64,000 bases of DNA from Shigella phage JK32. Of the stretch, positions 3,207 through 63,955 are shown one piece after another (position 1 is the first letter of the stretch; every line of letters begins with the position of its first letter). The stretch lies in the sequence record MK962753.1; one strand, given 5' to 3'. Below the pieces are notes generated by a model. It saw only the letters and a list, made by a program, of their open reading frames with translations. It was not told where the DNA came from and did no database searches. Made by a program: the position numbers and the translations under genes.

Positions 3207-5030
3207 TTATGATTGCATCCAAATTTTGCGTTGATCTGCATCTTCACTATAGAGCAAATCGAATAGCTCTTTATAGTTTTCCGGTAACGTGATGATCTCC
3301 ATTACAGGATCGTTGATCACGCGATGATAATCTGATTCTGTGAGCGATGCTAAACCTTTGATATATCGAATGTTGTAACCTTTGATATTATCGCGATCGT
3401 TCTCGAAATCTTCTAGGTCATAATACCATCGAACATCATCACCTTTCTTTGGTTCCGCAATGATAATAGGTGTTTTGATAAACCGGATTCGTCCATCTTC
3501 GAACAATTCAGGCCAACGAGCAAAGAAAGAGATCAGACTAGGCTTAATAGACCCGATCCCGTCAGTATCAGCGTCCGTCATAATCGCAATATTTTTGTAT
3601 TGCATAACTTCCAGTGCATCAACACCAAATTGCAAACCAGTGATCGCCATGATGTTAAAAATTTCGGCGTTCTTAACGATCTTTGCCTCTGGTTGTTCCC
3701 ACGTTGTAAGAGTTTTACCTCGCAACGGGAAACCGCCATGTAAATCTTGATCACGTACAGAGATCAGATAGTTGATCGCGGAATCACCTTCCGTCAAGAA
3801 CAGGGTAGTTTCTGCGTCAGTTCCAATAAGGTTAGCTTTAACGTGTTTTGCTACCTTAGCCCGTTTTGCTGCCTTTGCTGCCTTAGTCGCTGCCGCTTTA
3901 TCTGCTGCCTCTTTGCGTGCCAAAACTACAGCAATAATAGGCATGATAATGTTTTCTTTCTTCGCAATGACTTTAGCCAGTTTTTTAAAATCCAGATCAA
4001 TGTGTCGCTTGATATCACCAGTTGGATTAGTCAAGCGTTCTTTTGTCTGTGAATCAAAACGAAGGTTAGGCAATTCACGAACAATAAGAATACAGGTCAA
4101 TCCAGACTTAACCGCAGCTTTAGTAACATCAACCTTATATTCTTTCTTGATTCGTTTTACAATCTCTTCACAAAGATCATCTGTCACGTAGTCTACGTGT
4201 GTTCCCCCGTTTTTGGTAAACAGACCATTAGCAAAGGATACTGATTTAAAACCTTCTCCCTCGACCGCAGGAACTAGGGCAAGTGAAAAGTTTTTATCCT
4301 CGATGACAAACGGATCATCATTGTATAGTTTAGCATAATCCTTGAATTTGCTTGTTATCTTTTTGCCGTTAAATTTAAACGTGATCTTAGGAAAGATTAC
4401 ACTCAATGAATACATTCGGTCGCAAATCACATCTGAAATTTCTTGTGACATGATCATACCTTCAAAATGATCGAAATCGGGGCAGAACGTAACCTTAGTT
4501 CCTTTCAGTTTTGACGGCTTAGATGACCAGCTAATATTTTCTGCACCATTGGTACATTGAACGGTCAGTTCATTCTCTCCGTCACACGTCACACCAGTAA
4601 ACCAGGACGAGAAAAATGATGTGAGCGCGCTTCCGATCCCATTCATACCCATAGTAACACGATTTGTATCATCAAAGTTAGACCCTGCTTTAGCTCGTGT
4701 CCATGCAGCAACTGGTTGTGGAATCTGTTTCCCTTCTGGCGTCGTAACAATATGTTGCGGAATACCGCGACCATTATCTGTTACTGACACAATGTTATCT
4801 TTTATATCCACACTAATAACATTAGCGTACTCAAAATTAGTGCGGATCGCCTCGTCTACCGAGTTGTCGATGATCTCATCAATGATTTTAACCAGTCCAG
4901 GAACGTATGAAACTTTGGTCCATTTTCCAAATAGGAAACGATTGTGTGATTCATAAGTCGTTGACCCGATGTACATTGAAGGTCTCTTAAGACAGTGAGC
5001 GCGATCATCTAACAGCAAAAATTCAGACAT
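3207..5030 (-). CDS. 39: DNA topoisomerase II large subunit, single-gene form (equivalent to T4 gp39 plus gp60)
   Basis: 607-aa ORF; GyrB-like ATPase N-terminus and Toprim-like C-terminal region in one frame; size matches fused 39/60 of T4 relatives. Confidence 0.85.
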   Translation of the reverse strand: MSEFLLLDDRAHCLKRPSMYIGSTTYESHNRFLFGKWTKVSYVPGLVKIIDEIIDNSVDEAIRTNFEYANVISVDIKDNIVSVTDNGRGIPQHIVTTPEGKQIPQPVAAWTRAKAGSNFDDTNRVTMGMNGIGSALTSFFSSWFTGVTCDGENELTVQCTNGAENISWSSKPSKLKGTKVTFCPDFDHFEGMIMSQEISDVICDRMYSLSVIFPKITFKFNGKKITSKFKDYAKLYNDDPFVIEDKNFSLALVPAVEGEGFKSVSFANGLFTKNGGTHVDYVTDDLCEEIVKRIKKEYKVDVTKAAVKSGLTCILIVRELPNLRFDSQTKERLTNPTGDIKRHIDLDFKKLAKVIAKKENIIMPIIAVVLARKEAADKAAATKAAKAAKRAKVAKHVKANLIGTDAETTLFLTEGDSAINYLISVRDQDLHGGFPLRGKTLTTWEQPEAKIVKNAEIFNIMAITGLQFGVDALEVMQYKNIAIMTDADTDGIGSIKPSLISFFARWPELFEDGRIRFIKTPIIIAEPKKGDDVRWYYDLEDFENDRDNIKGYNIRYIKGLASLTESDYHRVINDPVMEIITLPENYKELFDLLYSEDADQRKIWMQS

Positions 5031-51610: not shown

Positions 51611-52009
51611 TTAAGCCAGTCGAGTGAGTTTATAAATGGTTTTAAAGCATAGAACTTTGATATCGTCTAAAACGCTCTGCAACGAGCTATCAACATCATT
51701 ATAAATCTCACTAGCCATTTGCGTTAACTCTTGCAAATAGGCAATTTCGCTAATCTCCTTGCGGACGACCAACGTTGGCTGATACCGACCAGTGATCCCA
51801 ATATTGGTTTCTGTGAAATTATCAACCAATTCTTGCATTTCAAGATAGAACTCTTCTAGAGCCTTATGTTTTGAATAAGACCCAGGTCCAGTTACCCCAA
51901 AATGCGCAGAATGCATATAAGTAACGCTCATTAGGCATTCACCAATAAAGCGGTCTACTTTATTAGCTTTTCCTTCCTCGGAAGTCTGCCTAAATTCACT
52001 GAATTTCAT
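51611..52009 (-). CDS. hypothetical protein, possibly ferritin/Dps-like
   Basis: Start set at MKFSEF after GGAG; MHSAHFGVTGPGSYSKHKALEEFYLEMQE loosely resembles Dps ferroxidase region. Confidence 0.3.
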   Translation of the reverse strand: MKFSEFRQTSEEGKANKVDRFIGECLMSVTYMHSAHFGVTGPGSYSKHKALEEFYLEMQELVDNFTETNIGITGRYQPTLVVRKEISEIAYLQELTQMASEIYNDVDSSLQSVLDDIKVLCFKTIYKLTRLA

Positions 52010-52295
52010 TATATCGATTCTCCATTTTATTAAGCACAATAAATTGATTTGCGGCATACTCTCCCATCATGAAACAATGTTTAGCATCCATACATTTACT
52101 ACGTGCGTATGTTTTCATTATGTGGTCATGAAATTTTTGACTTGTCTCCACCGATGGTTGTATTTTGTTTATATACACGATCATAGCACCGTCGAAGTAA
52201 TCAGTAAAGTCACCAACAGGACATTGATCGGCACTTACGCTACCAACTGCCATAACGCATATACCCGCAACGAGTGTTTTACGAATAAATGACAT
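51996..52295 (-). CDS. secreted/periplasmic small protein (N-terminal signal-like segment)
   Basis: 99-aa ORF starting MSFIRKTLVAGICVMAVGSVSA. Confidence 0.4.
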   Translation of the reverse strand: MSFIRKTLVAGICVMAVGSVSADQCPVGDFTDYFDGAMIVYINKIQPSVETSQKFHDHIMKTYARSKCMDAKHCFMMGEYAANQFIVLNKMENRYNEIQ

Positions 52296-52327: not shown

Positions 52328-52335
52328 TATTTATA
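52328..52335 (-). promoter_or_regulatory. late promoter consensus TATAAATA
   Basis: Exact TATAAATA on minus strand about 33 nt upstream of start at 52295. Confidence 0.4.
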
Positions 52336-57150: not shown

Positions 57151-57744
57151 TTAAACGTATTCAGCAACAACATTATGTTTAAAATTACCGCTCATTTTTG
57201 GATTTGGATTTTTCAATCGACTATGTATTAAATTTTTGTTGTATCCGGTTGCTTTAGACGCTTCGCCAATACTTTGATAAACAACACCATTAACACGAAT
57301 CGGACGAGACTTATTAAACAGTTTATTCAATCCGGCATCATATGCATGGTTTTGGTTTTCTTGTCTCGTTGCGATCTCAAGATTCCAAACACAATTACAA
57401 GATTTTACCCCACTTTTATGATTAATTTCAAGCCCTTCACAATCACCTATAAAGTGTTCAGCGACTAGTCTATGAATATAGCGATATTTCTTAGTTTCCC
57501 CGTCATGCAAGCATACATTATAATAACCATCACCAGCGCGTTTAGGTCGGAGTAGTTTACCTTTAACACGTTTTATAGTAGGGAACTCACCAAATTGATT
57601 TCGCTGGACAAACGAAATCTCGCGGTCTAATGAACGGATTCGACCATAGTTAGACACTTGATAAAAACTTTCATAGCCTTTAATTGGCTTCCATATCTCA
57701 GGGATTTCTACACCATCAATAACAACAAGTTTAAATTCTTCCAT
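57151..57744 (-). CDS. free-standing HNH endonuclease (NUMOD4-like N-terminus)
   Basis: YQVSNYGRIRS segment plus HRLVAEHF...INHKSG...N HNH core. Confidence 0.6.
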   Translation of the reverse strand: MEEFKLVVIDGVEIPEIWKPIKGYESFYQVSNYGRIRSLDREISFVQRNQFGEFPTIKRVKGKLLRPKRAGDGYYNVCLHDGETKKYRYIHRLVAEHFIGDCEGLEINHKSGVKSCNCVWNLEIATRQENQNHAYDAGLNKLFNKSRPIRVNGVVYQSIGEASKATGYNKNLIHSRLKNPNPKMSGNFKHNVVAEYV

Positions 57745-57794: not shown

Positions 57795-58208
57795 TTACAT
57801 AGATTCCGTAAAGGTACGGGTGATGATATCAAGTTGTTGTTCGCGTGTCAAGGCGTTGAATCGGGTAGCATAACCACTGATTCTAATAGTCAGTTGTGGG
57901 TATTTTTCAGGATTTTCTAACGCATCAAGAAGAGTTTCCCGACGCAGCACGTTCGCGTTGAGATGATGACCAGCGTTACTATTTACCCCGTTATCAATTG
58001 CTACAGGACGGAAGCTAGTTGTGTGTAGTGCCAGCGAATCGACGTCTTCTGCGGTGATCACATGGTCTTCTGCGAAAGTTTTACTAACAATTACTTTAGC
58101 GCCGATCAGTGCTTTCGGTTCGGATACCAGAATCATAGGCGCGAAATGTCCACCGATAATAGTACCTTTATGCTCACCTTTCATGATTTGAATTGCTTTA
58201 AATTCCAT
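57795..58208 (-). CDS. autonomous glycyl radical cofactor-like protein (GrcA/YfiD-like)
   Basis: C-terminal [12 protein letters not shown]...[33 protein letters not shown] closely resembles E. coli GrcA and the glycyl-radical RVSGY motif. Confidence 0.65.
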
Positions 58209-58891: not shown

Positions 58892-59467
58892 TTATTTTGG
58901 ATCTGGGAAATTCAATAGAGCATATTCTCCATAAAATTTCCTAGCTGCATTATCATAAGCGATTGCAGCTTCGATTTCTGTGTCATATTGTCCAAGAACA
59001 TGTCTTTGTAGGTTGACCATTATACTAGCTCTCCATTTCTTACGCAAATCCTTCCTGTTACACTTACTAACACCCTTATACACACTAGAAAACTTTTTAG
59101 ACTTCTTCTTTCTATTATGTTGATTTTGCGCGTCGGTTGCCTCCCTAAGATTTGGAGGATTGTTATTAGCAGGATTACCGTCAATATGATCAATTAATCT
59201 AACTTGCGTCCCATGTTCTAGAAACCAAACAACCCTATGCACGAATAGATGAACTCTAGGAAGACCGTCATCTCTACTATGCCAAAATCTAAGATGACCA
59301 TCTTTATTTGTTCTGACTTTAACTAAATCGCCGTGTTTATATCTACTCCCTAATGGTCGTCCTTTGATAGCTTTACTATCGACTCTATAATATAAGATAC
59401 CCTCTATATGAGCATATCTAAGTTTTATCTCGTTTTGTAGGGATTCATCCCAATATTTAAAGGTCAT
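58892..59467 (-). CDS. free-standing HNH endonuclease with AP2-type domain (paralog of 28242-28796)
   Basis: HRVVWFLEHGTQ...IDHIDGNPANN and YKGVS...WRASI segments. Confidence 0.65.
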   Translation of the reverse strand: MTFKYWDESLQNEIKLRYAHIEGILYYRVDSKAIKGRPLGSRYKHGDLVKVRTNKDGHLRFWHSRDDGLPRVHLFVHRVVWFLEHGTQVRLIDHIDGNPANNNPPNLREATDAQNQHNRKKKSKKFSSVYKGVSKCNRKDLRKKWRASIMVNLQRHVLGQYDTEIEAAIAYDNAARKFYGEYALLNFPDPK

Positions 59468-59512
59468 TTTATAATCCTCACAAAGCCAGCGATTAAGCTG
59501 GCTTTATTTTAG

Positions 59513-59902
59513 TTATACCGGGTCTGGATATACCTTTTTATCGAGTTCCATATGCGGTCCGTCTTTAAAAGTAACCCAATCAACACCGCAGATAACAGGA
59601 ACACCCAATTCTCGACCAGCTTGTTTAAATGCATCAGCGATCATGCGGTAATATTTCATGTTCCATGTATCCTTATCTTTAGGATACGCTACAACGTCAA
59701 CCGCGAAACCGTGAAGATGACGAGATTTCATAGTCTTAGATTTACCTTCCGCAACATATTTCTTTTGCGTTTCTAGACTACGCACACCTTCCGTAATACC
59801 AAAATCGACCGGAGTCAGTTCTAATGCACGATGAACGACTTTTACTAGGTCTGGATGTACACCAACAAGCCGATCTTTGCTTCTTTGAGATAATTTAAAC
59901 AT
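59513..59902 (-). CDS. endolysin, peptidase M15-type (L-alanyl-D-glutamate peptidase-like)
   Basis: SRHLHGFAVDV and DGPHMEL zinc-binding motifs; 129 aa. Confidence 0.7.
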   Translation of the reverse strand: MFKLSQRSKDRLVGVHPDLVKVVHRALELTPVDFGITEGVRSLETQKKYVAEGKSKTMKSRHLHGFAVDVVAYPKDKDTWNMKYYRMIADAFKQAGRELGVPVICGVDWVTFKDGPHMELDKKVYPDPV

Positions 59903-59930
59903 TATTCACCCCCTTTGTGAGTGATAATAT

Positions 59931-60122
59931 TTAGATTCCGGTGATCCTGCATAGAGTTCTTGTATTAGCACCAATCAGGATCGCATTAACGACAACCATT
60001 CCCCAATCAACCCACTGATTATTATAAATGCTAAACCCGTTTGCAAGACCAAATACAAGCATTCCGGTACACATACTCAGAGCAATAATCAACATCACGG
60101 TAAAACCAAATGCAAATCTCAT
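59931..60122 (-). CDS. small membrane protein (lysis-cluster candidate)
   Basis: 63-aa hydrophobic ORF upstream of endolysin. Confidence 0.4.
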   Translation of the reverse strand: MRFAFGFTVMLIIALSMCTGMLVFGLANGFSIYNNQWVDWGMVVVNAILIGANTRTLCRITGI

Positions 60123-60123
60123 A

Positions 60124-60339
60124 TTATTTTCCTTTTCTCTGTTTACGTTTATAAAAGTAATACATTACCTCATCGCGTCCGGTGATCCAACATGCTAGGG
60201 CAGTAAACAGGTTTACAATTCCCAACACACCTACGGATGCGGCGCTGTCAACAGACATAGGAACAGTAAAGGCCATAGCTAACATAGCAACGCCACAAAT
60301 GACATTAAGCACCATTATAATAAGACCGAAGAAAACCAT
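60124..60339 (-). CDS. small membrane protein (lysis-cluster candidate)
   Basis: Start set at MVFFGLII after GGGAGGA; ORF track extends to 60390. Confidence 0.4.
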   Translation of the reverse strand: MVFFGLIIMVLNVICGVAMLAMAFTVPMSVDSAASVGVLGIVNLFTALACWITGRDEVMYYFYKRKQRKGK

Positions 60340-60341
60340 TG

Positions 60342-60521
60342 TCAATCCTCCCAAATAAGAAAACCAACAATCACGCCAGTGATAAGACATGATGCACCAC
60401 TAATCAGACAACCCGCGCCAAGCGATTCCCACCAGATCAGGGAAGCGACAATAACACCGAATCCCCAGACTACCGCAATCACAACATAGGCAAAGATCGC
60501 CCAAAACATATATTTGTTCAT
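60342..60521 (-). CDS. small membrane protein (lysis-cluster candidate)
   Basis: Start set at MNKYMFW overlapping upstream stop (ATGA); ORF track extends to 60533. Confidence 0.35.
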   Translation of the reverse strand: MNKYMFWAIFAYVVIAVVWGFGVIVASLIWWESLGAGCLISGASCLITGVIVGFLIWED

Positions 60522-60706
60522 AATAAACCCCATTCACCAAACAAATAAGAAAAAAGCCATATCAACAGAAACGAGGCAATTGATCCGGCAAGCAAAATGA
60601 TATTAGAGAATCCGCTGTTTATCCAGTCGATCAAACAGAATACACCAGTATAGAAGCATAATCCCATTACAAAGCATACTATAAGCAACCATAGATAAAA
60701 CGCCAT
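60518..60706 (-). CDS. small membrane protein; its 5' end lies inside the tandem duplication
   Basis: 62-aa hydrophobic ORF. Confidence 0.4.
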   Translation of the reverse strand: MAFYLWLLIVCFVMGLCFYTGVFCLIDWINSGFSNIILLAGSIASFLLIWLFSYLFGEWGLL

Positions 60707-61122
60707 AGAAAGCCCTCTAGTGAGCTAATTTAGTGCGGGTAGTACATTACCCTACCCGCATTGTTAATCATCGCAGAGCGTGTTCTAGAACGATTCCACA
60801 CCAACCGCTAACCACACCCAAACACACAGCAACAAGCAGATTCATTCGGTCTTTTGAGCAAAATGATATTAGAGAATCCGCTGTTTATCCAGTCGATCAA
60901 ACAGAATACACCAGTATAGAAGCATAATCCCATTACAAAGCATACTATAAGCAACCATAGATAAAACGCCATAGAAAGCCCTCTAGTGAGCTAATTTAGT
61001 GCGGGTAGTACATTACCCTACCCGCATTGTTAATCATCGCAGAGCGTGTTCTAGAACGATTCCACACCAACCGCTAACCACACCCAAACACACAGCAACA
61101 AGCAGATTCATTCGGTCTTTTG
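60591..61122. repeat. perfect tandem direct duplication, 2 x 266 bp (60591-60856 and 60857-61122)
   Basis: Identical sequence read twice head-to-tail; also betrayed by identical plus-strand ORF prefixes at 60733 and 60999. Confidence 0.85.
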
Positions 61123-61194
61123 GAATCATCGCAAACAGAACAACACCCACACAGAAAGCCATCACCATTGAAGTTAACATTTGTTCAACCATTA

Positions 61195-61533
61195 TCACAC
61201 CTTTAAAGTCATAGACGCATAAACATTAATGCCAGGCCAGTTAGGATCGCAATTATACTCAACATCCCACAAATAAAGCGGTTTAGATGTATCAGCCAAG
61301 TTTTTAAAATCTTCTACCCACATTTCAATGCTATATGATGGATAAACTAGGCTGTCATATCCTCCGTAACGTTGGCCTACTGGTCGGTCAGTAAAAACTA
61401 CCTCAAGATCCGGTAATTCTTTTTCAAGGATAACCGCCAGCGCATAAATCAGACGGTCTTCCTTGTTACGCTGCCGAAGGACCGTTGTCAGTTGGTTTTT
61501 CTGGTTCACTAGCAAGCACCTCCACATTTTCAC
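61195..61533 (-). CDS. hypothetical protein
   Basis: 112-aa ORF. Confidence 0.35.
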   Translation of the reverse strand: MKMWRCLLVNQKNQLTTVLRQRNKEDRLIYALAVILEKELPDLEVVFTDRPVGQRYGGYDSLVYPSYSIEMWVEDFKNLADTSKPLYLWDVEYNCDPNWPGINVYASMTLKV

Positions 61534-61786
61534 AGAATGAAATTTTCACAGACACAATTTTACCATAAGTGAAGAATGAATATACATTATCGAGATATTC
61601 AACGTCACCTACAATCACATCAAACTGCGGATCAGCAACCGCCGCAACATATTCTACCAGTTCATCAAGAGAATGCAACTTAATTTCATCAATTCGGCTG
61701 TATTTGGTTGCATCTTTAATTTTAAAACCACGTTCTTTCAGTTTGTCAATCAGAATTTCACGCGGAGTTTCAAACAGTTTGCTCAT
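61466..61786 (-). CDS. hypothetical protein
   Basis: 106-aa ORF. Confidence 0.35.
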   Translation of the reverse strand: MSKLFETPREILIDKLKERGFKIKDATKYSRIDEIKLHSLDELVEYVAAVADPQFDVIVGDVEYLDNVYSFFTYGKIVSVKISFCENVEVLASEPEKPTDNGPSAA

Positions 61787-61807
61787 AATATAATCCTCAC
61801 ATTAAAT

Positions 61808-62008
61808 CTAAAATTTGTTAACGACGAATTGCATAATTAGACTAATCACAAACATTGCAAACCAAGTATAAATGCAACAGATAAAAGCTACATACAATTC
61901 AATCTGGTCAGAGAATACACCGGGTAAAAGCATTAGCAAAATAACAACAGTAAAGACGCTAGCGATACCCGCAACAAAACCAATATCATTTTTACTAATC
62001 GTCATCAA
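61808..62008 (-). CDS. small membrane protein
   Basis: 66-aa hydrophobic ORF. Confidence 0.35.
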   Translation of the reverse strand: MMTISKNDIGFVAGIASVFTVVILLMLLPGVFSDQIELYVAFICCIYTWFAMFVISLIMQFVVNKF

Positions 62009-62202
62009 GTCACCGTTTTGTAAAGAAACACAATAAAATCCAAGACAAGAAAGACAGTGTAAATGATCATCGTCAAGACAGTAAACACTGTCAGATTTTC
62101 ATCGTTAGTTAATTCATAGTCGCCCATCCATACAATAACAAGATATAGCATTGAAAGAATGGAAGCACCTACGAAGTTAAAAACATATTCTTGAGCGTCA
62201 TA

Positions 62203-62385
62203 TTAACAACCATCGCGGCTTAAGTCAACAGCAATTGCATACAGCATAATGAATATGCTAGCAGATCCGAGAATCAATGCACCCTCACATTTTGAAACTC
62301 GCTCATCAAAATGTAACATTATCCATCCGAGGATGTTAAAGGCGCAGACCGCGCCTATGTTCGCTAACCAATTAATCTTTTTCAT
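62203..62385 (-). CDS. small membrane protein
   Basis: 60-aa ORF. Confidence 0.3.
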   Translation of the reverse strand: MKKINWLANIGAVCAFNILGWIMLHFDERVSKCEGALILGSASIFIMLYAIAVDLSRDGC

Positions 62386-62393
62386 AATATACC

Positions 62394-62720
62394 TTAGAAA
62401 GAAACAGTTTTCAAGAAATCCAGATTTTTAGTACCGAAAACAGAAAAGTAGTGTTTTCCTTTTTCGGTTTTAGAGAAAGCGATTGTCTTCTCTACATGGT
62501 GACGGAAGCCAGACAGACGATCACCCAAGTCAAGGCGGCAAGCGTAAGTAGTGCCGTTTTCGAAAGTAACCTCGATTTGAGTTTTGTCATATTCGCTTTC
62601 ATAGGCTTTTGCTGCCGCGTCCTTTGCTTTACGCTCGAAGTCTTCGAAGTGGAATACTTCGTTTGCGTTAGCGAATACAGAAGATTCAGAGAAGATAACT
62701 TTAACAGATACTGGTTTCAT
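62394..62720 (-). CDS. hypothetical protein
   Basis: 108-aa ORF after promoter cassette. Confidence 0.4.
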   Translation of the reverse strand: MKPVSVKVIFSESSVFANANEVFHFEDFERKAKDAAAKAYESEYDKTQIEVTFENGTTYACRLDLGDRLSGFRHHVEKTIAFSKTEKGKHYFSVFGTKNLDFLKTVSF

Positions 62721-62762
62721 TTTGATACTCCTTAGTAGTTCGTGTTTCGTTTCGATGGGTGT

Positions 62763-62791
62763 ATTATGCTATACACCCTCTCGCGTGTCAA
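62763..62791 (-). promoter_or_regulatory. early sigma70-like promoter (minus TTGACA 62791-62786, CATAAT 62768-62763)
   Basis: Direct reading, 17-nt spacer. Confidence 0.5.
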
Positions 62792-62799
62792 CAACTTTT

Positions 62800-62988
62800 T
62801 TAGTCTTTTTTCATAATTTCTAGAGCAGTTTCTACCGCACCTTTCCAACCTTCCCACATAATGGACATAGTAATGAAGTTAAAGCACCCGCAGAAATCAA
62901 CCTTTTTAGAGATAAACCATTCTACAAACGCTTCGCTCATACCATGCTCTTTAGCGGATTCGCGTAATTGTTCAATTTGGTCTTCCAT
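62800..62988 (-). CDS. hypothetical protein
   Basis: 62-aa ORF. Confidence 0.35.
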   Translation of the reverse strand: MEDQIEQLRESAKEHGMSEAFVEWFISKKVDFCGCFNFITMSIMWEGWKGAVETALEIMKKD

Positions 62989-62997
62989 AGTATCACC

Positions 62998-63186
62998 TCA
63001 ACATTTAACGTTATTCAAACGATTTTGAAAGTACATATAGCAAGCATAATTTTGCTTTGGTTGTACCGTGTCAGATAGACACGCTTTTACAGCCTCGCGG
63101 TCCGATGGATCTACACCCTCAGCCTTAAGTAATGCTAAAATCTGGTTATAGCGTACTCTTAGTTGTACTAATGGTTTCTCTCCCAT
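62998..63186 (-). CDS. hypothetical protein
   Basis: Start set at MGEKPLV after AAGGGG; ORF track extends to 63249. Confidence 0.35.
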   Translation of the reverse strand: MGEKPLVQLRVRYNQILALLKAEGVDPSDREAVKACLSDTVQPKQNYACYMYFQNRLNNVKC

Positions 63187-63196
63187 ATTACACCCC

Positions 63197-63424
63197 TTAC
63201 AGTTGATCAGCGATGTATGCGGTGCAAGCGCGGAGTTTTGCCATAGCACCGCCTTTCATGTCACTAGCACCGACAATGTTCATGATCTCTAAGCGATCCG
63301 CTGGATTTAAGCGGGTAGCCCAGATCTGATTAGCCAGTTCCAGTTTACCCATTTGAGGTTCAATTTCTAACATTTCACGCTCAAAGTCGATGATTTCTTT
63401 TGCTGCTTCTTTAAAGTTGATCAT
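63197..63424 (-). CDS. hypothetical protein
   Basis: 75-aa ORF. Confidence 0.35.
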   Translation of the reverse strand: MINFKEAAKEIIDFEREMLEIEPQMGKLELANQIWATRLNPADRLEIMNIVGASDMKGGAMAKLRACTAYIADQL

Positions 63425-63453
63425 TTTGATTCTCCCGTTTCGTTGATGGTTGT

Positions 63454-63482
63454 ATTGTAGGGGAGTTATACTCCCCTGTCAA
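63454..63482 (-). promoter_or_regulatory. early sigma70-like promoter (minus TTGACA 63482-63477, TACAAT 63459-63454; hairpin GGGGAG/CTCCCC in spacer)
   Basis: Direct reading. Confidence 0.45.
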
Positions 63483-63491
63483 CACTTTTTA

Positions 63492-63677
63492 TCAGAAATA
63501 TGCGATATAGTTTGCCAGTCCTACAGAGTCATCATTCGGCATTGCTTTTACTGCTAGTTCAAACCCTGCTTCAACTTTCTGTTTAGCGGATTCTTCGTTA
63601 TAACCCCAGATTACCAGAATAGCTACTACGTTTTCTTTGCTTACTGCTTTCAGTGCTTTAGTGATGCGACGTGCCAT
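63492..63677 (-). CDS. hypothetical protein
   Basis: 61-aa ORF. Confidence 0.35.
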   Translation of the reverse strand: MARRITKALKAVSKENVVAILVIWGYNEESAKQKVEAGFELAVKAMPNDDSVGLANYIAYF

Positions 63678-63723
63678 AATTTGATTCTCCTAGTTAGAAA
63701 GTGTGTTTCGTTTCGATGGGGGT

Positions 63724-63752
63724 ATTATGCTATAGGCGTGATCTGGTGTCAA
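63724..63752 (-). promoter_or_regulatory. early sigma70-like promoter (minus TTGACA 63752-63747, CATAAT 63729-63724)
   Basis: Direct reading, 17-nt spacer. Confidence 0.5.
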
Positions 63753-63773
63753 CAACTTTTTTAAAAAAATTTA

Positions 63774-63805
63774 GGCAATAAAAAAAGCCACTCCGAAGAG
63801 TGGCT
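63774..63805 (-). terminator. strong rho-independent terminator (8-bp stem AGCCACTC/GAGTGGCT, UUCG loop, T7 run)
   Basis: Perfect GC-rich hairpin with tetraloop followed by TTTTTTT on minus strand. Confidence 0.7.
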
Positions 63806-63806
63806 T

Positions 63807-63955
63807 ATAGGGAAGGTAGCGAATCTTCCTTGTCTCCAACCTGCTAGCGGCCTAGCAAGTGAATGCTTTAGCGTACCGGGTCACCCCATACGCTGTAATA
63901 AATGCGGCTAGGTGACGTCCAAATCATTCTAACCGCGCTGTCTTTAGTTCACTAT
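63807..63955 (-). ncRNA. candidate small non-coding transcript between late promoter and terminator
   Basis: About 150 nt with no convincing ORF, bounded by TATAAATA and the strong terminator; internal hairpin TGCTAG/CTAGCA; no tRNA cloverleaf found. Confidence 0.25.

Follow-up and report, generated by a model that had tools for sequence, protein, structure and literature searches.

Shigella phage JK32 is the source of the 64,000 nucleotides (nt) of DNA analysed here (sequence record MK962753.1), and this whole stretch is referred to as the window. It contains the gene of an M15-type peptidase endolysin, preceded by four short genes for hydrophobic proteins which we call m1 to m4. The original prediction had taken these five genes for a compact lysis module, in which the small proteins provide holin, antiholin and spanin functions and a peptidase takes the place of a lysozyme-type endolysin, and had set this arrangement against that of phage T4. 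In this study, we present evidence that the endolysin is the orthologue of an enzyme already known, and that its leader appears to carry an RNA switch of the kind described for T4 gene e. The small membrane proteins are probably neither holin, antiholin nor spanins.

The region is matched at 93-97% nucleotide identity by 58 phage records, all of them from the genus Krischvirus (RB49, Phi1, JSE and GEC-3S among them), and the window is colinear with JSE from rIIA to about 61.6 kb. Going by these matches, the source phage is a Krischvirus, an RB49/JSE-like T4-type coliphage. Since the phage itself is T4-type, the contrast with T4 becomes a comparison within one family, and the claimed difference in layout falls away, the lysis genes of the genus being dispersed as they are in T4 (see below).

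Every gene of the locus lies on the minus strand (Table 1). Read 5' to 3' on that strand, gene B is followed by a stem-loop, m1, m2, m3, m4, a spacer of 28 nt and the M15 gene; 3' of the latter come a hairpin (59505-59482), the gene of an HNH-AP2 homing endonuclease, vs.8 and vs.6, a GrcA-like glycyl-radical gene. The four co-directional hydrophobic open reading frames (ORFs) of 59-71 amino acids upstream of the endolysin gene were described correctly; they encode 62, 59, 71 and 63 amino acids. Their proposed overlap is real for m1 and m2, where start and stop codons share ATGA, whereas m2 and m3 are 2 nt apart, m3 and m4 1 nt, and m4 and the M15 gene 28 nt. The order of proteins of 51, 62, 59, 71, 63 and 129 amino acids is also kept in a diverged lineage whose m3 is just 80% identical. 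Base composition gave no sign of recent transfer, the GC content being 0.405 in the region vs 0.402 in the window.

Table 1. Positions of the features in the window, with the direction of reading of genes in brackets (TM, transmembrane; pN/pS, ratio of nonsynonymous to synonymous polymorphism)
Feature	Position	Strand	Basis or remark
M15C zinc-peptidase endolysin gene, 129 amino acids	59513-59902 (59902 to 59513)	minus	Pfam, PHROG and PDB matches
RNA hairpin in endolysin leader, 15 bp	59896-59933	minus	pairs Shine-Dalgarno sequence GGGGGUGA (59913-59906) and AUG (59902-59900) with upstream 15 nt
Late-promoter-like octamer TCTAAATA	59928-59935	minus	7/8 match to T4 consensus TATAAATA; contains m4 TAA stop
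m4, 63 amino acids, one strong and one weaker hydrophobic helix	59931-60122 (60122 to 59931)	minus	PHROG 15016 (unknown function), E 6e-45
m3, 71 amino acids, two TM helices, basic C-terminal tail YKRKQRKGK	60124-60339 (60339 to 60124)	minus	PHROG 15232 (unknown function)
m2, 59 amino acids, two TM helices, start overlapping m1 stop	60342-60521 (60521 to 60342)	minus	PHROG 16151 (unknown function)
m1, 62 amino acids, two TM helices, zero basic residues	60518-60706 (60706 to 60518)	minus	hydropathy; PHROG 19354 (unknown function)
Stem-loop between gene B and m1, GCGGGUAG / CUACCCGC	60734-60760 (copy 61000-61026)	minus	fold; no U-tract
Perfect 266-bp tandem duplication	60591-61122		60591-60856 = 60857-61122
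Gene B, 52 amino acids, two TM helices	61034-61192 (61192 to 61034)	minus	hydropathy, PHROG; pN/pS 0.21
Three further tiny hydrophobic ORFs, 66/48/60 amino acids	61808-62385	minus	ORF list, PHROG, hydropathy
Sigma-70-type promoter-like site TTGACA-17-CATAAT	62763-62791	minus	11/12 match
Palindrome (hairpin) after M15 gene	59482-59505	minus	scan: terminator-like on plus strand, T-run following there
Free-standing HNH_3 + AP2 homing endonuclease gene	58892-59467 (59467 to 58892)	minus	between endolysin gene and vs.8
rI, T4-type antiholin gene	51999-52295	minus	tblastn with JSE RI: 74% identity, E 8e-49

The M15 endolysin and its leader

The motifs that had pointed to an M15-type endolysin, SRHLHGFAVDV and DGPHMEL, are residues 60-70 and 114-120 of the protein, and the assignment is borne out by database matches. 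The protein scores 33.9 bits against Pfam PF13539 (Peptidase_M15_4; cut-off 25) and matches PHROG 465 (endolysin) with an E value of 5.5e-63. Its matches in the PDB are 23ri (E 2.3e-77), 8q2g (2.9e-74), ChiX 5opz (1.9e-32) and the T5 endolysin 2mxz (3.4e-20); its first 103 residues match the 23ri chain exactly and depart from 8q2g at two positions. EndoRB49 is a zinc L-alanoyl-D-glutamate peptidase characterised by Mikoulinskaia and colleagues (PMC10487532; PMC8140593), in which H62, D69 and H117 are the zinc ligands, D114 is catalytic and W109 is essential (PMC10487532). All five residues are kept in the translation from the window. Cleavage of the L-Ala-D-Glu bond has been reported for the enzymes of RB49, RB43, T5 and KP27 (PMC8140593, PMC5219037). 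By sequence, the protein of the window is the EndoRB49 orthologue and so an already-known endolysin, the activity of its C-terminal allele being predicted.

Like the members of the EndoRB49/EndoT5 family (PDB 8q2g, 23ri, 2mxz), it is a globular single-domain M15C protein with the zinc and catalytic residues present. It differs from EndoRB49 in its last ~25 residues, which form a second allele, (V)ICGVDWVTFKDGPHMELDKKVYPDPV, where EndoRB49 has EWGGDWTSFKDGPHLQLPHSKYPDPK, with substitutions at W105 and G107 of the WGGDW motif. This second allele recurs exactly in JSE and Whisky and in near-identical form in the L007-L009 lineage (VVCGVDW...PHIEL...). The single domain comes without a signal or signal-arrest-release (SAR) sequence, its maximum 19-residue hydropathy being 0.81; because it has no hydrophobic N-terminus or signal, the enzyme would depend on a holin.

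A search of JSE with the T4 e lysozyme matched the gp5 domain only, and no e-type lysozyme was found there. The 2010 review of Uzan and Miller lists RB49 and phi-1 as phages without gene e, and RB49, phi-1, RB16 and RB43 are given in it only as having 'no apparent gene e' (PMC3014915). The gene order is vs.6-vs.7-vs.8-denV-ipII-ipIII-e in T4 and vs.6-orf-vs.8-M15 in RB49; the M15 gene occupies the genome position of T4 gene e, adjoining vs.8/vs.6. Outside the genus, temperate enterobacterial phages supply its closest relatives (endolysins with 57-64% identity), and the enzymes of other T4-like phages, KP27 and RB16, stand at 47%. Because the M15 enzymes of temperate phages are closer than those of T4-like phages, this fits a non-orthologous replacement of the endolysin by horizontal transfer.

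The hairpin formed by the endolysin leader has a minimum free energy of -12.3 kcal/mol (z -4.93), and none of 200 shuffled sequences was as stable. The 41-nt leader runs from the end of m4 up to the ATG of the endolysin gene. Apart from one A/G difference in JSE, 11 genomes share it unchanged, whereas the coding DNA flanking it differs by 6-15% among the same genomes. In the diverged lineage, where the leader has a 1-nt deletion and two codons are changed, it folds at -18.2 kcal/mol (z -5.4). The 5' arm of the hairpin contains the late-promoter-like octamer, 33 nt ahead of the endolysin ATG, and an RNA beginning at 59922, about 6 nt downstream of the octamer, is unstructured (-3.8 kcal/mol, z -0.17).

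Motifs of the form [ACT][AC]TAAATA occur five times on the minus strand of the window, four of them 24-40 nt before a start codon. In JSE, (N)ATAAATA is found 28-45 nt upstream of most late genes. The variant CTAAATA has 13 sites in the 166 kb of JSE, and 6 of the 13 lie about 23-42 nt before annotated starts, where some 0.3 would be expected (an estimate from the fraction of the genome that lies 16-45 nt upstream of starts). The six genes are those of gp37, holin t, a baseplate-hub protein, uvsY.-2, gp55 and the endolysin, and the sequences hint at a late-promoter sub-class common to the two lysis genes, holin t and endolysin. According to Nolan et al. (2006), CTAAATA is the late consensus of phage Aeh1, and the first position is loosely conserved in RB49. 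JSE holin t (157290) and gene 37 (154066) have CCTAAATA and TCTAAATA at about -41/-42, instead of the canonical TATAAATA.

The arrangement has a well-known precedent. The ribosome-binding site of T4 gene e is covered by an inhibitory hairpin whose 5' strand holds one or more late promoters (McPheeters et al. 1986, as reviewed in PMC3014915); translation of lysozyme from read-through early RNA is reportedly cut about 100-fold, and the late transcripts are translated (PMC3014915). When the T4 gene e leader is put through the same folding, its energy is -14.9 kcal/mol (z -3.6); the 5' arm holds TATAAATA, and nudE, the gene upstream, has its stop codon 1 nt ahead of the stem. The Krischvirus hairpin likewise buries the Shine-Dalgarno sequence and the AUG, holds a late-type octamer in its 5' arm, has the m4 stop codon at the base of its stem and is of comparable stability (-12 to -18 kcal/mol). 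The M15 gene, like gene e, would end an early transcription unit, in the same vs.6/vs.8 neighbourhood. Unlike in T4, the regulated enzyme is an M15 peptidase, non-homologous to the GH24 lysozyme; there is one motif and not two, TCTAAATA stands in place of TATAAATA, and the leader sequences are unrelated.

In KP27 and RB16, the Shine-Dalgarno sequence of the M15 gene is likewise hidden by an outer stem, with a late-promoter-like NNTAAATA downstream of the stem's 5' strand (positions 2435-2520 of the stretch used from each phage). The octamers are CATAAATA or CGTAAATA, and the leader sequences are unrelated to those of Krischvirus; they fold at -24.9 kcal/mol (z -5.1) in KP27 and at -24.0 kcal/mol (z -4.6) in RB16. 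The inner hairpin of the KP27 leader, followed by a U-run, is annotated as a terminator in KP27. In the literature, of which our search gave incomplete coverage, we found no report of such a hairpin/late-promoter switch for M15 endolysins. The M15 leader appears to carry a T4-gene-e-style RNA switch, and would then be a new example of a known form of regulation.

A different and clearly less probable account is that the hairpin is no temporal switch. The endolysin would be made from early RNA, by coupling to m4 translation or by breathing of the hairpin, and would be harmless until holin T acts; the octamer TCTAAATA would be fortuitous. It is established lysis biology that an endolysin in the cytoplasm is non-toxic without a holin. 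Moreover, the octamer departs from the (N)ATAAATA usual in the genus and is partly forced by the m4 stop codon, and because this stop codon lies in the 5' arm, terminating ribosomes could melt the hairpin. Against this account stands the conservation of the 41-nt non-coding stretch while neighbouring synonymous sites vary (pS 0.15-0.29). Both versions of the leader fold strongly, the motif class is rare and strongly tied to start codons, and T4 gene e, with its reported 100-fold reduction (PMC3014915), has identical geometry; KP27 and RB16 follow the same logic.

The small membrane proteins

The membrane character proposed for the four small proteins was examined by hydropathy, and it is clearest for m1, m2 and m3, with two hydrophobic helices each. 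In m4, a single helix is clear, and the sequence suggests another, weaker one. The grand average of hydropathy ranges from 0.7 to 1.7 across m1-m4. An AlphaFold2 model of m3 is a helical hairpin of residues 2-25 and 30-69 (predicted local distance difference test score 77). A strongly charged, hydrophilic C-terminus of the kind expected of holins is seen in m3 only (RDE...KRKQRKGK); m1 lacks basic residues altogether, the last residues of m2 are ED, and m4 contains two arginines.

All four reading frames are intact in every scorable genome (10-11 of 11, the window counted), a scorable genome being one with an ungapped full-length match. Whisky m1, gapped by a 1-nt deletion, was left out; m1 is intact in 10 of 10 genomes scored and m4 in 11 of 11. 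Summed pN/pS is 0.39 for m1, 0.25 for m2, 0.25 for m3 and 0.27 for m4, vs 0.22 for the M15 gene and 0.19 for vs.8. The genes m1-m4 are real genes under purifying selection, beyond chance ORFs. The deletion in Whisky m1 (4119-4306 of the Whisky stretch) lies near the 3' end and alters the last ~10 codons, and the Whisky record annotates one ORF of 101 amino acids in place of m1 and m2. It is either a sequencing error or a sign that the C-terminus of m1 is dispensable.

Each of the four proteins falls in a PHROG of its own, with a model length equal to the protein length. Against Pfam there are matches below threshold only, the best being m3 to Phage_holin_3_5 (E 0.032, 14.8 bits, cut-off 27), and searches of NCBIfam and PADLOC with the small proteins gave no match. 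By tblastn against 50,697 phage records, m3 and m4 were found solely in the 58 Krischvirus records. Among 5.8e9 proteins, m3 has 10 clusters, nine of which reach at least 80% identity, the tenth being a fragment, and a profile search of 1.84e9 representatives returned its own family alone, with no remote relative. m3 is also the best conserved of the four (95.8-100% amino acid identity across the 58 records, the DNA of the region being at 93-97%). By these searches, m1-m4 are orphans confined to the genus, and their annotations call them hypothetical proteins or putative membrane proteins.

Functions of the kind assigned to m1-m4 in the original prediction are found elsewhere in the genus. JSE has a holin of 218 amino acids 3' of the tail-fibre genes, ~100 kb from the endolysin gene (Pfam Phage_holin_T, E 1.6e-60), and an RI that matches PF24205, the T4-like antiholin family (E 9e-23). 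Its annotation also holds rIIA, rIIB, and pseT.2 and pseT.3 as spanins, and the pseT.2 ORF shows a proper LSSC lipobox. Because the T-type holin, RI and pseT.2/pseT.3 sit elsewhere in JSE, the Krischvirus lysis genes are dispersed as in T4. Holin and spanins are core genes of Krischvirus in a pan-genome study (PMC10194099). The T4-like phages KP15 and KP27 combine an M15 endolysin with a dispersed T/RI/spanin system (PMC5219037). JSE resembles them in having holin T and RI, by Pfam, and the annotated pseT.2/.3 scattered over the genome; in the window, rI lies 7 kb from the endolysin gene and is preceded by a canonical TATAAATA at 52328-52335. The window RI has 74% protein identity to JSE RI vs ~94% for the surrounding DNA. 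Such a gap suggests that the antiholin has evolved rapidly or as a mosaic, perhaps to fit the periplasmic domain of its holin T.

That m1-m4 and the M15 gene form a self-contained lysis cassette, the small proteins acting as holin, antiholin and spanin(s), is on this evidence very improbable. The genes are indeed adjacent, co-oriented and tightly packed, m3 combines two TM helices with a basic C-terminal tail as class II holins do, and there is the sub-threshold match to Phage_holin_3_5. Furthermore, the closest M15 genes outside Krischvirus (59% identity; Solent and P88) do lie in holin-endolysin-spanin cassettes. The genus already has a T-type holin, RI and spanins, and m1-m4 match no holin, antiholin or spanin family; in particular, none of the four matches PF24205, the family of RI-type antiholins. 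Spanin features are likewise missing: at 59-71 amino acids, almost wholly hydrophobic, the proteins show neither a canonical lipobox nor a periplasmic coiled-coil or a periplasmic domain of spanin length. LSMC in m4 was considered as a lipobox and rejected; it has Met at -1, is non-canonical and lies inside a TM helix with more TM sequence after it. MNKYM in m2 was considered as the dual start of a holin/antiholin pair and also rejected, since the second Met is not conserved, being Leu in the diverged lineage.

We also rejected the idea that a holin was transferred together with the M15 gene. The proteins m1-m4 show no similarity to the Solent and P88 holins beside the closest foreign M15 genes, or to the 2,088 ORFs that flank 79 non-Krischvirus M15 homologues in IMG/VR. 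In addition, the M15 endolysins of other T4-like phages have soluble upstream neighbours: the Krischvirus endolysin is preceded by tiny membrane proteins, whereas those of KP27 and RB16 are preceded by soluble proteins, so that the pairing of M15 with membrane proteins is not a general rule. Finally, no late-promoter motif precedes m1-m4, and the endolysin start is structurally insulated from m4. The cassette of the original prediction is not supported by these comparisons.

The promoter context is of an early type. The sigma-70-type site of Table 1 heads a run that goes from an LPD25 gene through small ORFs and m1-m4 to the M15 gene. In GEC-3S, the corresponding site is annotated as a promoter, and no terminator is annotated before the end of vs.6. 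The late-promoter motif NNTAAATA is absent upstream of m1-m4 on the minus strand (59936-63955). The Shine-Dalgarno sequence of m3, GGGAGG, includes GGAG, which is the RegB cleavage target typical of T4 early messages (PMC3014915). On the grounds of the sigma-70-type site upstream, the lack of a late motif and the GGAG in the m3 Shine-Dalgarno sequence, m1-m4 are read as early genes, a reading drawn purely from the nucleotide sequence. An internal sigma-70-like site at 60345-60317 (11/12) was treated as a chance match, its -35 element overlapping the m3 start codon.

The genes m1-m4 belong to a larger island. Of the 11 small hydrophobic ORFs of the window, eight, with 48-71 amino acids, fall within 59931-62385; of the 11, ten came from a simple ORF/hydropathy heuristic, to which m2 was added. 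The heuristic had dropped m2 and gene B for overlap, and gene B is hand-added among the eight. Gene B is separated from the ORFs of 66, 48 and 60 amino acids by two soluble ORFs (106 and 104 amino acids). The eight fall in separate PHROGs, all of unknown function. No paralogy among them was detected, the best pairwise E value of 0.06 in a tiny database being not significant for hydrophobic sequences, and growth of the island by gene duplication was dropped, despite a 266-bp duplication private to this record.

Judged by its sequence, m3 is the most holin-like of the four and equally Imm-like. Like class II holins (e.g. S21) and T4 Imm, it is a small protein in which a short periplasmic loop joins two TM helices and the cytoplasmic tail is basic, but it shows no sequence or profile similarity to either; m1, m2 and m4 have no charged tail. 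T4 Imm is a protein of 83 amino acids with two TM helices. The layout of m3 is not diagnostic, because two TM helices and a basic tail fit T4 Imm as well as a class II holin.

This bears on the idea that m3, perhaps together with the other three proteins, is an auxiliary factor of lysis timing that acts besides T and RI, e.g. by depolarising the membrane as a pinholin does or by modulating holin T. Such a role would account for the conserved place of the genes beside the endolysin gene. We regard this idea as unlikely, though less so than a complete cassette. The order of the five genes is strictly kept even in the lineage at 80% identity, m3 is the most conserved of the four, and the clustering of hydrophobic ORFs beside the endolysin gene is the main observation that keeps this explanation alive. 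The early-type operon context without a late motif argues against it, and so does the RegB target in the Shine-Dalgarno sequence of m3 (PMC3014915). T4 Imm has the same architecture and is not a holin, and adjacency is weak evidence because synteny is generally conserved in T4-type early regions.

Duplication, homing endonucleases and other neighbours

The tandem duplication extends from within the 3' end of gene B across the intergenic stem-loop and takes in the first 39 codons of m1. It yields a chimeric ORF, m1' (60972 to 60808), of 39 amino acids of m1 and 15 out-of-frame residues, and the second copy of the stem-loop (61000-61026) stems from it. The duplication is absent from all 58 related records (match span ~1635 nt vs 1901) and from JSE, and either arose very recently or is an artefact of assembly. 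The GC-rich stem of the stem-loop (8-9 bp) is kept in all relatives, while its loop of 9-10 nt varies freely. The stem-loop may be an element of RNA stability or processing, or a recombination hotspot of the promoter early stem-loop (PeSL) type known from RB49-like phages.

As minus-strand RNA, the palindrome after the M15 gene folds at -17.2 kcal/mol (z -5.5) and is followed by GUGAGG, with no U-run. The free-standing homing endonuclease gene next to it is present in JSE and Whisky, and G2248 is annotated with an HNH endonuclease there; it is absent from RB49, Phi1, GEC-3S, W115 and the L007-L010 lineage. Genomes that bear the endonuclease have a different hairpin after the endolysin gene and, among Krischvirus isolates, the endolysin allele with the C-terminus ICGVDW...HMELDKK. 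A strict link between endonuclease and C-terminal allele was rejected, as L007-L009 carry a near-identical allele without the endonuclease; a loose association remains.

The product of vs.6 (57795-58208, minus strand) resembles GrcA, the autonomous glycyl-radical cofactor (Pfam Gly_radical, E 6e-15), and vs.6 DNA is 77-81% identical to that of relatives vs 94-97% for its neighbours. Just downstream of vs.6 lies a second homing-endonuclease-like ORF of 197 amino acids (57151-57744, minus strand).

Proposed regulation and its meaning

We favour, with a probability of roughly 0.6, the explanation that an EndoRB49-type endolysin gene ends an early operon under a T4-e-like leader switch and that m1-m4 are not holin, antiholin or spanins. 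Sigma-70-type promoters upstream would give a polycistronic RNA from which m1-m4 are made early, with read-through into the endolysin gene. On this early RNA, the conserved hairpin would hide the Shine-Dalgarno sequence and AUG of the endolysin and so keep the cistron translationally closed. Late in infection, RNA polymerase with gp55 would start at TCTAAATA in the 5' arm of the hairpin, at about 59922, and the resulting short RNAs, devoid of the hairpin, would be translated. The soluble endolysin would build up in the cytoplasm until triggering of holin T, the timing being under RI; once released, it would cut the L-Ala-D-Glu bond, and spanins would then disrupt the outer membrane.

The proteins m1-m4 are most likely early accessory factors of the inner membrane. 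One may speculate, by analogy with T4 Imm, which fills that role in T4, that they take part in takeover of the host membrane or in superinfection exclusion. Accessory functions, perhaps of this kind, are favoured given that no Imm or Sp homologue is detectable in JSE, where searches for both T4 proteins gave no match.

Several points weigh against the proposed regulation or parts of it. The octamer, a 7/8 match with C at -12, is unlike the usual Krischvirus motif, and the promoter is predicted from sequence. Support for the hairpin comes from conservation and two alternative registers and not from covariation, because the leader is nearly without variation. A ribosome terminating on m4 would reach the base of the hairpin and could open it, so that early translation of the endolysin would be coupled to that of m4; since T4 gene e has the same geometry, its precedent suggests that any such effect would be minor. 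The holin and spanins of this genome itself lie outside the window and are inferred from relatives. Eight of the 11 small hydrophobic ORFs are concentrated directly upstream of the endolysin gene, which the proposal leaves without explanation, and this clustering, together with the class-II-holin-like layout of m3, leaves room for a role related to lysis. The role of m1-m4 in takeover or exclusion is held with low confidence.

A bolder and improbable extension is that m1-m4, perhaps with the rest of the eight, constitute an undescribed inner-membrane system of Krischvirus, serving lysis timing or endolysin release in parallel to holin T, or superinfection exclusion, and that T4-type phages rebuilt the gene e switch round a non-homologous endolysin acquired by horizontal transfer in at least three genera.

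For annotation, the favoured explanation calls for caution: a row of tiny membrane proteins beside the endolysin gene in a T4-type phage does not warrant the labels holin, antiholin or spanin, as the T/RI/PseT system is present and the small genes are orphans of early type. The eight-gene island of membrane proteins offers a compact, conserved target for functional screens (exclusion, toxicity, lysis timing). In Krischvirus, and likewise in Slopekvirus and Pseudotevenvirus, an M15 endolysin has replaced the T4 lysozyme and appears to be under gene-e-like RNA logic. If this is true, delayed translation of the endolysin would itself be selected in T4-type phages, whichever enzyme is used, and the classic paradigm of gene e would reach phages that the 2010 review had set aside as having 'no gene e'.

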